Assembly (NCBI GenBank): GCA_946408105.1
Contig: CAMJQS010000001.1
Location: 4,077 to 68,076, forward strand
Source: an uncultured Selenomonadales bacterium
GTDB taxonomy: Bacteria; Bacillota; Negativicutes; Selenomonadales; Selenomonadaceae
Length of the DNA stretch: 64,000 nt
Reading direction: 5' to 3'
Shown here: positions 10,774 to 31,323 of the stretch, piece by piece
How positions within the stretch are numbered: the first letter of the stretch is position 1
Layout of the letters: every line of letters starts with the position of its first letter
Program-made: the position numbers and the translations under genes
Notes under the pieces: generated by a model
Database searches by the model: none
What the model saw: the letters and a program-made list of their open reading frames with translations, nothing else
Told to the model about the DNA's origin: nothing

Positions 10774-10917
10774 GAATTCCTCTTTGCAAAAAATTTTTAA
10801 CAACAAACGAAATAATCTCGGCGCGGCGACTGACTAAAAATTTTTGAACACTCGAACGCGTCAGCTGTTCCGCCGCTTTCAAAGCGGCCGCCGATTAAAA
10901 TTTTCAGCCGCTGAAAT
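10734..10917. repeat. Gene-boundary cassette E: 126-bp insert (10763..10888) flanked by perfect 29-bp direct repeats (10734..10762 and 10889..10917)
   Basis: Both copies read cgccgattaaaattttcagccgctgaaat. The left copy is codons 5-14 of tcdA. The right copy follows an ATG that overlaps the ftsZ stop as ATGA. Confidence 0.9.
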
Positions 10918-19435: not shown

Positions 19436-20110
19436 TTGGAGATGATAATTTTGAAAGTCGAAGAAATTTTTTTCCGAGATATGTATCACCAAATTTGTTT
19501 GCTCACGGACGCGGCCTTGGCCGGAAAATTTATCGACATGCTGGAAATGGACGACGAGAAACCCGACGGACTTTTGGCTTACGGTTACATTGATAAGGAC
19601 GCGGGCTTCACGTTCAGCATTTTGGGCGGCGCGAAAACTTCGGGCGGCAAGCTGAAAATTTTTCCGATAAACTACAAAGCGGCGGCTGTCGTTCGGCGCG
19701 GCGCAACTGCCGAGGCCGACGTAAAAATTTTGACGGACGATTACGCGCTGGCCTTCCGCGACCGAATGCAAATGATTAACGACACGTACGCCGTCGACGA
19801 CGCAAGAGAGCAGACGCGCTTCATAAAAAATCTCGACGCCTTCCGCCACCCCGATTATCCCGACGATGTTGTCGTTTATTTTTTCCACGCGGAAGACAAG
19901 CCCGAACTTTTGTGGGTGCGCTGCTTGAGCGTCGACGAAAATATTTTGAAGGGCGAACTTTTGAATGAGCCGACGAAAAATTTTGGCTGTCATGCGGGCG
20001 ACAAAATTAAATTCGGCGTCGCGAAAATCGGCGAGCAAAATATTTTGCTCCACCTGCCGACAACGGCGGGCAACGTGACGTTGCATCCAACGGACGCGCT
20101 TGAGCAATAA
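19436..20110 (+). CDS. Hypothetical protein (224 aa)
   Basis: Ordinary amino-acid composition on the + strand, whereas the antisense ORF is Arg-rich; last ~13 codons lie in a repeat-family copy. Confidence 0.6.
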   Translation: MEMIILKVEEIFFRDMYHQICLLTDAALAGKFIDMLEMDDEKPDGLLAYGYIDKDAGFTFSILGGAKTSGGKLKIFPINYKAAAVVRRGATAEADVKILTDDYALAFRDRMQMINDTYAVDDAREQTRFIKNLDAFRHPDYPDDVVVYFFHAEDKPELLWVRCLSVDENILKGELLNEPTKNFGCHAGDKIKFGVAKIGEQNILLHLPTTAGNVTLHPTDALEQ

Positions 20111-20144
20111 AAAATTTTCAGCGAATTTGCCGCGCTCAAACGTT
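20070..20144. repeat. Repeat-family copy A (palindrome GCAACGTGACGTTGC plus ~60-bp tail), inverted relative to copies B and C
   Basis: Aligns by eye with reverse complements of 25263..25337 and 31230..31304. Confidence 0.85.
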
Positions 20145-24461: not shown

Positions 24462-25259
24462 ATGAAAAAATTTTTCCTGATAATTTTCGTCGCGATTTTC
24501 TTTCTGCCGCTCGGAAAACTTGAGGCGGGACACTTGGAAGATATTTCTTCGCGCGGAACAATCCGAATCGGCACGACGGGCGATTATATCCCGATGTCTT
24601 ATCTCAACCCCGCGACGGGCGAGTACGAGGGAATCGACGCGGAACTTTCAAAAATTATCGCGGCGTCTTTGGGCGTGAAGATTGAATACGTTCCGACGAC
24701 GTGGCCGACGCTCTCCGCCGATTGTCAAGCCAACAAGTTCGACATTGCGCTTTGCGGTATCTCCAGAAATTTTGCGCGGGCGAAGACAATGGCGATGAGC
24801 GACGCTTACGGCGAAGGGCTCTTCGGCAAAACAATTCTCTGCCGCAAGACCGACGCAAAAAAATTTAAAAGCGTTGCCGACCTGAACAAGCCGACCGTCC
24901 GAATCATGATTAACCCCGGCGGCACGAACGAAAAATTTGCCCGCGCCAATCTTCCGAACGCAAAACTTATCGTCCACGAATCCAACGCAGACATCCCGAT
25001 TCAAATCGCCGAGGGCAACGCCGACATCATGATAACAGAGACCGTCGAGGCTGTCAGTTGGGTTAAGCGCGAACCGAGGCTTGCCGCGCCGCTCGTCGAC
25101 AAACCTTTCGAGGGCACGAAACATTCTTGCGGAATTTTGTTGCAGAAGGGCGACCAAGAATTTTTAAACTACGTGAATTTTGTTTTGGCGGAGCTGCGTA
25201 TGAACGGCACGCTTGAAAAGTTGGAAATAAAATATTTGGGACGCAAGCCGGCAAAATAA
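24462..25259 (+). CDS. Periplasmic substrate-binding protein, family 3 (amino-acid/cyclohexadienyl-dehydratase-like)
   Basis: Signal peptide, GTIRIGTTGDYIPMSYLN...GIDAELSKIIAASLGVKIEYVPTTW. Confidence 0.75.
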   Translation: MKKFFLIIFVAIFFLPLGKLEAGHLEDISSRGTIRIGTTGDYIPMSYLNPATGEYEGIDAELSKIIAASLGVKIEYVPTTWPTLSADCQANKFDIALCGISRNFARAKTMAMSDAYGEGLFGKTILCRKTDAKKFKSVADLNKPTVRIMINPGGTNEKFARANLPNAKLIVHESNADIPIQIAEGNADIMITETVEAVSWVKREPRLAAPLVDKPFEGTKHSCGILLQKGDQEFLNYVNFVLAELRMNGTLEKLEIKYLGRKPAK

Positions 25260-25383
25260 TCGACAACATTTAAACGCGGCGAGCGGCTGAAAATTTTTAC
25301 GGCTCAAGCGCGTTCATTGGATGCAACGTCACGTTGCCGGCACGCTTGAGAAATTGGAAACAAAATATTTGGGAAGGAAACCG
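25205..25383. repeat. Gene-boundary cassette B: 87-bp insert (25251..25337) flanked by a 46-bp direct repeat with 6 mismatches (25205..25250 and 25338..25383)
   Basis: cggcacgcttgaaaagttggaaataaaatatttgggacgcaagccg versus cggcacgcttgagaaattggaaacaaaatatttgggaaggaaaccg; insert ends in GCAACGTCACGTTGC (25323..25337). Confidence 0.9.
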
Positions 25384-28423: not shown

Positions 28424-29131
28424 ATGAAGTTCACAAAAATTTTTGTCGGCGCGTTGCTTGCGTTGGTTTTGTTCGTGACGCCCGCCGCCGCTCAAAAATC
28501 TGTCGCGCCCGATGACCCGTCGGGCTTCGTTGTTTTGGGCGAATTCATTCCCGACATTATCCAAGAGATTCGCTACTACTCGACTTATAATTTCGTCGGC
28601 GACAGGATTGACGGCTACGAAATGCCCTGCGCGCTCATGACACGCGAGGCCGCCGAGGCTTTGAAAAAAGTTTCCGACGACGTGATGAAGTTGGGCTATC
28701 GTCTAAAAGTTTACGACGCCTATCGTCCGCAAATGGCGGTTAATCATTTCGTGCGCTGGGCGAAGGACACAAAAGACGTTCGCATGAAAAAATATTTTTA
28801 TCCCGAAATCGGCAAGGAGCGTCTCTTTCCCGAAGATTACATCATGGAAAAATCCGGGCACTCGCGCGGCTCGACGATTGACTTGACGCTCTTCGACATG
28901 AAGACCGGCAAGGAAGTCGACATGGGCGGCACGTTCGATTACTTCGGCGAGCTGTCTCATCCCGACTACAAAAAAATTACAAAGCAACAATTCAAAAACA
29001 GAATGATTCTTCGCGACGCGATGGTTAAGCACGGCTTCAAGCCGCTTTACTCGGAGTGGTGGCACTTCACGCTGGAGAACGAGCCGTATCCCGACACGTA
29101 TTTTACTTTCCCCGTCAACGCGCTGAAATAA
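28424..29131 (+). CDS. D-alanyl-D-alanine dipeptidase (VanX/DdpX, peptidase M15D), secreted
   Basis: Signal peptide, EIRYYSTYNFVG...VYDAYRP...SGHSRGSTIDLTL...EWWHFTL. Confidence 0.85.
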   Translation: MKFTKIFVGALLALVLFVTPAAAQKSVAPDDPSGFVVLGEFIPDIIQEIRYYSTYNFVGDRIDGYEMPCALMTREAAEALKKVSDDVMKLGYRLKVYDAYRPQMAVNHFVRWAKDTKDVRMKKYFYPEIGKERLFPEDYIMEKSGHSRGSTIDLTLFDMKTGKEVDMGGTFDYFGELSHPDYKKITKQQFKNRMILRDAMVKHGFKPLYSEWWHFTLENEPYPDTYFTFPVNALK

Positions 29132-29162
29132 AAAAGTCCCGCGCCTTGCGAGACCGTGAAGT

Positions 29163-29522
29163 TTAATTTTTCTTTGCAAAAAGTTTTTCGTAGTTTTCAA
29201 TTTTGTAATCGAGCCGCTCAATCGTCGAACGCAAATGTTCTTCCTGCTTTTGGAGACGCGCCCGTTGCTCGATTAAAATATTTTTCCGACGCTCCACTCC
29301 GGTATTCGCTTGCAAGAGCGTGACGTATTCAATCAACGCTTCGATTTGAACGCCCGCGCTCCTCATGCATTTGACGAACGACACCCAACGGCAAGCCTCT
29401 TCGTCAAAGTTGCGAATGCCGTTTTTGTTGCGCGGCACCGGCGGAATCAATCCGATTCGTTCGTAGTATCTGAGCGTGTCCGCCGTTATCTCGTATTTTT
29501 CGCTGACTTCGCCAATCGTCAT
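29163..29522 (-). CDS. MerR-family regulator, AdhR-like (conserved Cys in KCMR)
   Basis: MTIGEVSEKYEITADTLRYYERIGLIPPVPRNKNGIRNFDEEACRWVSFVKCMRSAGVQIEALIEY; RBS GGAGTG. Confidence 0.85.
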   Translation of the reverse strand: MTIGEVSEKYEITADTLRYYERIGLIPPVPRNKNGIRNFDEEACRWVSFVKCMRSAGVQIEALIEYVTLLQANTGVERRKNILIEQRARLQKQEEHLRSTIERLDYKIENYEKLFAKKN

Positions 29523-29555
29523 AAACATCACTCCGAACAAAAAATTTCCACTGCA

Positions 29556-29586
29556 AGTTTATCAGCTTAAGCCCGCTTTAAGTCAA
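29556..29586 (-). promoter_or_regulatory. MerR-type promoter with 19-bp spacer and dyad
   Basis: Minus strand TTGACT - 19 nt (TAAAGCGGGCTTAAGCTGA) - TAAACT, 27 nt upstream of the merR-like ATG. Confidence 0.55.
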
Positions 29587-29596
29587 GTTCAAATTG

Positions 29597-29707
29597 TTTG
29601 GAAAAAATCTTGCCGCTTTAAAAGCGGCGGAACAGCGGACGCGTTTAACGTTAAAAAATTTTTAGCCGCTCGCCGCGCTCAAACGTTTTGGAAAAAATCT
29701 TGCCGCT
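29597..29707. repeat. Gene-boundary cassette D: 69-bp insert (29618..29686) flanked by perfect 21-bp direct repeats (29597..29617 and 29687..29707)
   Basis: Both copies read tttggaaaaaatcttgccgct; right copy encodes ...RQDFFQ of the nif3-like gene. Confidence 0.9.
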
Positions 29708-30467
29708 CGTCGTCTTCAAAAATTTTTACGTCAAAAGTTTTCAGCTCGTCTCTAAGATATTCGGCAAGCTCGTGAACAATCGGAAACTCCGTGGCGAAGT
29801 GCCCCGCGTCCACGACGTGAATTTCATTTTCGACGGCCGCTTGAGCCTCGTGATATTTTACGTCGCCCGTGACGAACGCCTGCGCTCCGAAAAATTTTGC
29901 GCGCTGAATAAAATCTGCGCCCGCGCCGCCGCACACGCCGACCTTGCCGATTAAAAAATTTCCCGCGTCGACCAGGCGGACGCTTTTGGCGTTCAAAGAT
30001 TTTTTCACGTGGCGGGCAAAATCTTCGGCGGTCATCGGCGTCTCCAAAGTTCCGAGGCGTGCCATCGAAAATTCTTCGTCGCCAAAATTTTTTACGTCGA
30101 CGAGCCCGATTTTTTTTGCAAGCACGTCGTTGACGCCGCCTTGAGCCGTGTCCAAATTCGTGTGCGCCGCGAAGACCGCCAAATTATTTTTTATCAGCCG
30201 CGAAATTTTTTTTCCGAGCGGCAAGTCGAAGCGGACATTTTTTATCGCGTGGAAAATCAGCGGGTGATGCGCGACGATTAGTTGTGCGTCGAGCTCAATC
30301 GCCTTTGAAATTTTTTCGTCGAGTACGTCGAGGCAGACGAAAATTTTTTTTACTTCGGCCGCCGGGTCGCCGAGCAAAAGTCCGGGGTTGTCCCAGTCTT
30401 CGGCAAGTTTTTTCGGAGCCAAACGGTTAATCGCGTCGGCAACAATTTGAACGGTGCATTTCTTCAT
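29679..30467 (-). CDS. Nif3-family dinuclear-metal protein (YbgI/YqfO-like)
   Basis: IADAINRLAPKKLAEDWDNPGLLLGD...LIVAHHPLIF...GHFATE. Confidence 0.85.
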   Translation of the reverse strand: MKKCTVQIVADAINRLAPKKLAEDWDNPGLLLGDPAAEVKKIFVCLDVLDEKISKAIELDAQLIVAHHPLIFHAIKNVRFDLPLGKKISRLIKNNLAVFAAHTNLDTAQGGVNDVLAKKIGLVDVKNFGDEEFSMARLGTLETPMTAEDFARHVKKSLNAKSVRLVDAGNFLIGKVGVCGGAGADFIQRAKFFGAQAFVTGDVKYHEAQAAVENEIHVVDAGHFATEFPIVHELAEYLRDELKTFDVKIFEDDERQDFFQNV

Positions 30468-31228
30468 AAAGTTTCCTCCAAAAATTTAAGCACGTCGTCG
30501 AAATTTTTTGCGAGCTGCGGATAAAAAATTTTCGGGCGGTCAATCATGACGACGGGCAAGTTTAAAATTTTCGCCGCCTCAAGTTTCGTATCCGCGCCGC
30601 CGATTTGCCCGCTGTTTTTCGTGACGACGACTTCGGCCTGTGCGTGTTTGAAAAGTTCGGCGTTGAGTTCGGTCGAGAAGGGTCCTTGCATGGCGACAAT
30701 TTGTTTCGGCAACAAGCCCAAAGCTTCGCACTGACTTAAAACGTCGGCGGTCGGCAAAACGCGCGCGGTCAAGTTGCAACCTTTGAGCAGGTCGACAAAA
30801 ATTTTCAAGCTGCGGCTGCCCGTCGTGAGATAAATATTTTTTCCGAGCTGCGACGCTTTGAGCGCGGCCGCCTCGTAGCTTTCGACGCGGAAAATTTTTT
30901 CGTAGTCAAAAATAATTTCCGCGCGTTCGTAGCGGACGTAAAAAATTTTTGCGGCTTGGGCGGCGGCGATTGCGTTGGCGGAAATATTTTTTGCGTAAGG
31001 GTGGCTGGCGTCGACGAGGAAATTAAATTTTTCTTCGCGCAAAATTTTTTCCAACTCGTCGCGGTCGAGCGGCTTGTCGTTAATCTTGACGGCCGCGCAA
31101 CTCTCCAAAAGTTTTCGTCCGTAATCGCTGACGACAGAGGCCGTCACGTCGAAATTTTTTCCCGACAAAAATTCTGCGAGCCGGCGTCCGTCTTCCGTTC
31201 CCGCGATTAAAAAAATTTTTTTGTTCAT
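30464..31228 (-). CDS. cbiJ: (Cobalt-)precorrin-6A reductase
   Basis: MNKKIFLIAGTEDGRRLAEFL..., 254 aa, ...VVVTKNSGQIGGADTKLEAAKILNLPVVMIDRP. Confidence 0.8.
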   Translation of the reverse strand: MNKKIFLIAGTEDGRRLAEFLSGKNFDVTASVVSDYGRKLLESCAAVKINDKPLDRDELEKILREEKFNFLVDASHPYAKNISANAIAAAQAAKIFYVRYERAEIIFDYEKIFRVESYEAAALKASQLGKNIYLTTGSRSLKIFVDLLKGCNLTARVLPTADVLSQCEALGLLPKQIVAMQGPFSTELNAELFKHAQAEVVVTKNSGQIGGADTKLEAAKILNLPVVMIDRPKIFYPQLAKNFDDVLKFLEETL

Positions 31229-31323
31229 GATAACTCCGAGCGCGGTGAGCGACCGAAAAATTTTTTCGACTCAAGCGCGACCATTGGATGCAACGTCACG
31301 TTGCAAAAATTTTTTTGTTCATG
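31211..31323. repeat. Gene-boundary cassette C: 75-bp insert (31230..31304) flanked by perfect 19-bp direct repeats (31211..31229 and 31305..31323)
   Basis: Both copies read aaaaatttttttgttcatg (reverse complement of the cbiJ start ATGAACAAAAAAATTTTT); insert ends in GCAACGTCACGTTGC (31290..31304). Confidence 0.9.

Follow-up and report, generated by a model that had tools for sequence, protein, structure and literature searches.

MITEs carry terminal inverted repeats and are flanked by short duplications of fixed length, which is set by the parent insertion sequence (IS). REP elements are not known to have target duplications at their flanks. For IS1549 and IS1634, direct target repeats that vary from 8 to 514 bp have been described, with no accepted mechanism (PMC2266710). 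In Chlamydomonas, the HUH/Rep transposon Replitron-1 combines an exact left end, a fuzzy and variable right end, variable target duplications and a terminal hairpin (PMC10288648). We found no mention of repeats or mobile elements in the Quinella genome paper (PMC9585023) nor, in the literature on small bacterial repeats with long variable duplications, anything matching the family described below.

The locus compared here with these systems lies in a 64-kb stretch of DNA that was analysed as a whole (the window) and belongs to a fragmented MAG that was 61% complete. On the minus strand, the ORF list contained a nif3-like (DUF34/NIF3) gene at 29679–30467, in which residues 6–251 of 262 matched PF01784 (E = 1.4e-82). 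The gene cbiJ is located upstream of it. Downstream, on the same strand, follows a gene for a MerR-family regulator (29163–29522; Pfam MerR_1 and MerR) with a likely ATG start at 29522 (MTIGE...), in agreement with the orthologues, which begin ATGACGATTGG. A MerR-type promoter was predicted from the sequence at 29556–29586 (minus strand), with a −35 element TTGACT (29586–29581), a 19-nt spacer and a −10 element TAAACT (29561–29556), and the same layout was found in orthologous loci. We conclude, with a probability of about 0.87, that a non-autonomous mobile element of approximately 75 nt recently landed in the final codons of this nif3-like gene.

The sequence TTTGGAAAAAATCTTGCCGCT occurred exactly twice in the window, at 29597–29617 and 29687–29707 (pattern search; 0.01 matches expected by chance). 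The two copies are spaced 90 bp and enclose 69 bp (29618–29686), which is the perfect 21-bp repeat around a 69-bp insert that the initial annotation had described. In a repeat search, the similarity reached leftwards to 29589 and 29679, giving 29 nt of 90% identity; the extension starts with TCAAATTGTTTGG... at 29589 and TCAAACGTTTTGG... at 29679, has three adjacent mismatches (TTG vs. CGT) and keeps the in-frame TGA in both copies. When translated on the minus strand, the right copy is the live coding copy (...RQDFFQ), and the gene ends in FEDDERQDFFQNV and a stop (...RQDFFQNV-stop). It is followed by ARRAAKNFLTLNASAVPPLLKRQDFFQTI and a second stop (...KRQDFFQTI-stop), a relic of the nif3 end to which the left copy belongs. 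The relic coding remnant RQDFFQTI-stop (29589–29615, minus strand) corresponds to the ancestral C-terminus and stop, as judged from translation, empty-site alleles and orthologues.

The live stop (TCA at 29679–29681, read on the minus strand) is situated within the tail of the insert. The ORF runs 8 nt into this tail, and the last two sense codons and the stop (29679–29686) derive from the insert. This origin, already claimed in the initial annotation, follows from the recurrence of the insert tail elsewhere: copy A, another family member in the window, has exactly the same final 16 nt, GCCGCGCTCAAACGTT (approximately 20129–20144), and these fit the family tail Y-N-A-W-ACG. The insert and one repeat copy together make up exactly 30 codons, and the TGA of the insert is the sole stop in the nif3 frame before the relic stop. 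Judging from the reading frame, a family-consensus tail (TTGAAC) in place of the insert tail would lengthen the protein by 30 residues, to an end at the relic QTI. Upstream of the duplication, the native octamer TCAAATTG is similar to the final 8 nt of the insert (TCAAACGT), and the stop occupies the same register in both. Over 29655–29689 (AAAATTTTTAGCCGCTCGCCGCGCTCAAACGTTTT), the 3' portion of the insert was 71% identical to the native nif3 end at 29692–29726, with GCCGCTCG common to both; this likeness may be due to chance or to homology that aided insertion.

The insert is oriented antisense to nif3, on the plus strand, and belongs to a family of hairpin-headed repeats (H1), as determined with an nhmmer search against the family profile (E = 3e-21). 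Its head hairpin, GCCGCTTTAAAAGCGGC (29612–29628), straddles the boundary between the left repeat and the insert. A palindrome had been noticed at this position before, as something created by the junction; it is present, and it is the conserved 5' hairpin of the family rather than a chance creation. The head is followed by a conserved core, GGAACAGCGGACGCG (29629–29643), delimited by the alignment of family copies, and the insert ends in the tail CGCCGCGC plus TCAAACGT (29671–29686). A window search found the core AAAGCGGCGGAACAGCGGACGCG again at 10857–10879 on the minus strand with one mismatch. Sequence comparison and the family profile likewise bore out the claimed homology of the insert to the core of another copy in the window (copy E) and the tail that it has in common with copies A and B. 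In the case of the present insert (copy D), the target itself carries GCCGCT, the first 6 nt of the head, and the first hairpin arm coincides with native target bases. The element proper is therefore better read as approximately 75 nt starting from GCCGC, with a 6-nt overlap with the left copy of the duplication.

The polarity of the event could be read from natural alleles in public sheep and goat gut runs (numbered X). Contigs from four independent runs (X6, X8, X9 and X13) carried an empty site: they join 29596 directly to 29687 and skip exactly 90 bp, namely the insert and one repeat copy, and the 21 letters of the repeat fit on either side. The empty contig from X6 (1638 nt) matched 28886–29596 and 29687–30600 with 35 mismatches in 1625 aligned bases. 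This identity of 97.8% to the window indicates that it is from the same species. Since the empty contigs lack 29597–29686, nif3 encodes ...QTI-stop in them, which is the ancestral gene end that the initial annotation had predicted from the left copy and its native flank. The filled form was spanned by contigs of X3, X4, X5, X9 and X11; X3 additionally contained a relative of approximately 93% identity with an empty site and the ending FQTI-stop. The insertion is recent, since it is still polymorphic within the species.

Orthologous loci pointed in the same direction. The merR–nif3 junction was empty in eight of ten sister-species loci (G018, G016, G012, G015, G001, G019, G020 and G023). The empty site of G018 reads ...AAATTGTTTGGAAGAAATC..., that is, ...KDFFQTI-stop. 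A wider survey covered 54 loci from records named Selenomonadaceae or Quinella sp. MAGs, which originated from sheep, goat, deer and buffalo. Orthologues ending in QNV without the repeat would have made the left copy the secondary one, as had been pointed out beforehand, and this ending was found in none of the 54 loci. Among the closer relatives, the C-termini were almost always x-T-I/V/L-stop. The distance from the nif3 stop to the merR ATG was 54–77 nt at empty sites, and the relic stop in the window is 66 nt from the ATG.

The original length of the duplication is blurred by variation among strains. In the public runs, most strains carried T and T/G variants at 29699, 29702 and 29704 of the live copy (...EPKDFF, not ERQDFF). 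The target alleles GCCGCT and TCGGCT (29702/29704) were each seen in both filled and empty sites, meaning that recombination has blurred the original junction at least once and that the target may originally have been duplicated over 15 or over 21 bp. The distribution of these alleles implies recombination among strains or, alternatively, between the two copies of the repeat. We considered a 15-bp duplication with strain-specific conversion, based on TCGGCT in the live copy of most filled strains, but did not retain it as the sole solution, since 21 bp is just as possible in view of an empty allele that has native GCCGCT.

A search of the MAG for relatives of the insert, as suggested in the initial annotation, yielded 12 full-length and approximately 15 partial copies (BLAST and nhmmer profile). 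The head and core motif was detected in 28 of 61 genomes of one Quinella-like genus, with 1–191 copies per genome (G010: 191, G023: 62, G015: 26, G020: 17), compared with 0–1 matches for reversed-pattern controls. In 178 genomes of 39 other genera of the family Selenomonadaceae, only three single hits with two mismatches were obtained, approximately the level of the reversed-pattern control. Within these searches, the family was confined to the Quinella-like genus.

The anatomy of the repeats was deduced from 44–47 aligned copies. The head is a perfect 17-nt palindrome, composed of GCCGC, GTCGC, CCCGC or GTTAC, then TTTNAAA and the complement of the first arm. In 44 copies, the stem covaried at pair 1–17 and pair 2–16 (GC 34/CG 8 and CG 31/UA 9, respectively). 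After the head follow the core GGAACAG...CGCG and approximately 30 variable, A/T-rich nucleotides, often with AAAAATTTTT. The tail consists of CGCCGCGC and then Y-N-A-W-ACG; in longer copies, another small hairpin (ACGAAATGCNTGCGCATTTCTAG) follows. In copies A, B and C (approximately 20070–20144, 25251–25337 and 31230–31304), exactly the same 5' position is taken by a different perfect palindrome, GCAACGTGACGTTGC, and the body and tail are of the D/E type. Because the head palindrome differs in these copies, the conserved feature is a hairpin at the very 5' end and not its sequence. Two head types on one chassis are thus found in the window, GCAACGTGACGTTGC heads (A, B and C) vs. those of the D/E type. 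Terminal inverted repeats were not found: the sole inverted repeat in 29450–29850 was AAAAATTTTT, and the ends of the 44 aligned copies were not mutually complementary, save for an invariant CGCG/CGCG pairing. Motifs similar to AAAAATTTTT are very abundant across the window and dominate its generic repeat families.

Copies with a CCCGC head (G010 loci L059, L066–L069, L072 and L074; contigs C10 and C28 of the MAG itself) often had a further conserved hairpin module, TCTACTTTCTTTG-N7-CAAAGA, in front of them and extended into a longer body (GGATGCAAACCTCATGCC...GCGCATTCGCC), constituting a larger composite subfamily. Among 51 copies from the MAG and from loci L002–L079, the head-to-tail strand ran against the majority of the local genes (antisense) in 30 cases and with it (sense) in 14. 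The gene contexts were convergent in 10 cases and divergent in 2. This excess of antisense and convergent positions is a weak hint at a strand or selection bias.

Target duplications were found around other copies as well. Flank alignments at random genome positions served as the null distribution (mean 8.9, 99th percentile 17.5). In the MAG, 10 of approximately 25 dispersed copies exceeded the 99th percentile, with direct repeats of 19–81 bp. Clear duplications in other genomes measured 14–64 bp; a perfect case of 98 bp was a tandem unit. The left duplicate abutted the first hairpin base exactly in 11 of 18 clear cases and lay within 8 nt of it in the remainder. The right end of the insert varied, from 6 to 67 nt past CGCCGCGC, with or without the second hairpin; copy D is among the shortest and ends right after ...ACG(T). 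The family thus follows a rule: the head end is exact, the tail end is ragged and the duplications are 14–98 bp long. Microhomology, as seen in copy D, was examined as a general rule and discarded, as most clear junctions of the other copies were blunt.

Tandem units and arrays of alternating head types were present too. At C2:12698/12836 of G010, units followed each other with a period of 138 bp, the single new joint being that of flank to head. This perfect tandem duplication (C2:12698–12975, L056/L057) comprises one element, a ribosome-binding site and the first 15 codons of a hydrogenase-maturation-protease-like gene. On contig C169 of the MAG (positions 1–700), an array with a period of 190 bp alternates two head types over at least 3.5 units and resembles a BIME-like mosaic.

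An exact end at the foot of the hairpin, a ragged opposite end and long, variable duplications suggest a process that sets out from the head and continues over a distance that is only loosely fixed. We infer that copying or cutting would begin at the head and end loosely. The product may enter a target opened by nicks that are a variable distance apart, and gap filling would then yield the duplication. The event at nif3 duplicated 21 bp of target, or else 15 bp plus 6 bp matching the first arm of the head by chance. One copy of the gene end stayed joined to the ORF and the other beside the MerR promoter as a relic, with the element tail supplying Asn-Val-stop in place of Thr-Ile-stop.

The consequences for the locus appear to be slight. 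The change from TI to NV at the C-terminus lies 11 residues past the NIF3 domain and is probably near-neutral. The −35 element of merR is only 2 nt from the relic stop, and the relic copy preserves the native A/T-rich flank beside it. Side effects of the insertion are 90 bp of added spacing and a hairpin with a T-run between nif3 and the merR promoter. The insertion was a clean single event with a modest functional effect, and probably near-neutral overall. In other species, the nif3–merR junction contained family members (G010 and G017) or other repeats (L086, L094, L107 and L109). It is evidently permissive, given that small inserts of other kinds are found there. The unrelated inserts (L086, L094, L107, L109 and L087) included a hairpin element CTACTTTCTTTG...CAAAGAAAGTAG, a CCACTTTTTAAAAGTGG hairpin and heptad-like repeats of GGAATCAGG. 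In L087, approximately 22 nt of the nif3 end were duplicated, with only approximately 15 nt between the copies.

Explanations other than a recent insertion were weighed against these data. The possibility of an assembly artefact would be raised by the fragmented state of the MAG and by the tendency of repeats to break assemblies. It is ruled out, with a negligible residual probability, by the independent assemblies of five runs, whose filled-form contigs (X3, X4, X5, X9 and X11) extend across both junctions. The site might instead have been occupied since ancient times, with the empty alleles representing loss rather than recent gain: slippage or recombination between the 21-bp repeats would later have excised the element precisely. 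Direct repeats of this length can mediate precise deletion, G010 and G017 have other family members at this gene end, and both target alleles exist in filled and empty form. We nevertheless hold such a history to be improbable: no family member was present at this position in eight of ten sister species and approximately 50 of the 54 wider orthologues, the inserts of G017 and G010 are of different subtypes with different junctions, and the repeat copies in the window are identical at 21 of 21 positions, which argues for a young event. It is also very unlikely that the insert is primarily a signal under selection that acts in cis as RNA or DNA, for instance a nif3–merR terminator or insulator, or a small RNA, instead of selfish DNA. 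A consensus scan did place a terminator-like structure on the transcribed strand, formed by the head hairpin and the relic T-run (GCCGCTTTTAAAGCGGC AAGATTTTTT; 29602–29628, minus strand; hairpin fold z = −2.5), and family sequences occurred in metatranscriptome contigs. However, the terminator scan yielded no more sites than shuffled sequences, and the whole element folded no better than shuffles on either strand (z approximately −0.1), the head hairpin alone being robust. An Rfam scan of 29400–29900 returned nothing above noise, its sole hit scoring 12 bits against a gathering score of 97. Furthermore, the copies lie in both orientations relative to genes, and the site is polymorphic in the species.

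How a recently inserted element of this kind could be mobilized was addressed by searching candidate enzyme families in 11 element-bearing and 11 element-free genomes. Single-stranded DNA movement by an HUH-type enzyme (REP/RAYT, IS200/IS605 or a rolling-circle Rep) that recognizes the foot of the hairpin, with readthrough or early termination at the 3' side causing the ragged tail, would account for a boundary exactly at the foot of a covarying hairpin and for the single flank-to-head joint common to the tandem units. The exact 5' end, ragged 3' end and variable duplications also parallel those of the eukaryotic Replitron-1 (PMC10288648). We consider this route unlikely, given that none of the 11 element-bearing genomes, not even G010 or the 100% complete G015, gave a match to the Y1 transposase (PF01797, Y1_Tnp), although positive controls were detected. 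In addition, no copy of the element was found in IMG/VR viral contigs, and bacterial HUH transposons are, to our knowledge, not known to make target duplications. The Y2/IS91 family (PF04986) gave no matches anywhere, with the controls likewise silent. A derivation of the family as MITEs from an IS with a DDE transposase that produces long duplications of varying length, as in IS1634/IS1549, is quite improbable as well. G010 combines 191 copies with 21 DDE_Tnp_1 (PF01609) matches, which speaks for such a link, but DDE_Tnp_1 did not track element counts: it was missing in G023 (62 copies) and G020 (17 copies), weak in the 100% complete G015 (26 copies; only one sub-threshold match) and represented by 4–8 matches in several element-free genomes. 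Many of the matches in G010 have a single in-frame TGA; two repeat kinds are expanded in this one genome. The lack of terminal inverted repeats and the ragged 3' end are further arguments against a DDE-dependent MITE, as is the failure to find a long element with the same ends. Every perfect head in the MAG, itself incomplete, led into a short body, and the two examined pairs of heads approximately 1 kb apart in G010 enclosed an ABC ATPase gene and a 3D-domain protein gene and no transposase. Target-primed reverse transcription of a small RNA with a hairpin at its 3' end, in the manner of a SINE, would be expected to give one exact and one variable end and duplications of varying length, and there is the 6-nt microhomology at the exact end of copy D. 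It is highly improbable in light of the many junctions, the majority, that have no microhomology, and of the absence of reverse transcriptase (PF00078, RVT_1) from eight of the 11 element-bearing genomes (G000, G010, G015, which is 100% complete, G017, G023, G043, G060 and G064). The same search does detect RVT_1 in other genomes of the genus. Finally, the family may, tentatively, be an undescribed kind of mobile DNA: gene-less, defined by nothing more than the hairpin at its 5' end, copied head-first up to a loose 3' end and inserted between nicks 14–98 bp apart. It would be moved either by host functions for replication or repair or by a class of enzyme with no previous link to transposition. 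An element of this sort could colonize tight gene junctions without killing the neighbours, because the duplication would rebuild the gene end, gene start or promoter flank that is hit.

Whatever moves the repeat, the filled and empty alleles constitute a natural before/after pair. They are approximately 98% identical elsewhere and coexist in sheep and goat rumen populations, and the exact product of one insertion is known (+69 bp, 21 bp duplicated, two codons and the stop replaced). This pair makes an odd family experimentally approachable. The mechanism could show how mobile DNA harmlessly invades compact operons. For annotation, the locus is a warning that gene termini in these genomes can be element-derived, with relic gene ends alongside.

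By its behaviour, the family is a small non-autonomous mobile repeat. It shares with REP, BIME and REPIN sequences the short, non-coding hairpins with GC stems, compensatory stem changes, positions at gene boundaries, mosaic and tandem arrangements and restriction to a lineage. Those repeats depend on RAYT (Y1 HUH) proteins, whereas the element-rich genomes studied here have no RAYT/Y1 gene, and for this reason the family is not of the REP/RAYT kind; it also differs in having one exact hairpin end, one ragged end and duplications of 14–98 bp. The absence of reverse transcriptase from eight of the 11 element-bearing genomes likewise sets it apart from retroelements. Like the MITEs represented by the Neisseria Correia elements, RUP and ERIC, it is small, non-autonomous, located at gene junctions and able to supply stops, starts, promoters or terminators. 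It is nevertheless not a MITE, as there are no terminal inverted repeats and no short duplication of fixed length, the duplications varying from 14 to 98 bp. No parent was found in the incomplete MAGs. Long, variable direct target repeats are a feature in common with the IS1634 family, but IS1634 and IS1549 are elements of 1.5–2 kb with defined inverted ends and a DDE transposase, and DDE_Tnp_1 does not track the present family. With Replitron-1 it has in common the exact and fuzzy ends, the variable duplications and the terminal hairpin. In contrast, Replitron-1 is an autonomous element of eukaryotes that codes for its own Rep and is inserted after RG, whereas no Rep/Y1 gene and no evident target motif were found for the family. 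The family looks undescribed and mechanistically unusual, in that small bacterial repeats with long variable duplications, one exact hairpin end, a ragged opposite end and no recognizable transposase do not fit the textbook classes (MITE, REP/RAYT, IS200/IS605 and retroelements). Its mechanism, once worked out, could explain the long duplications of IS1634-type elements.
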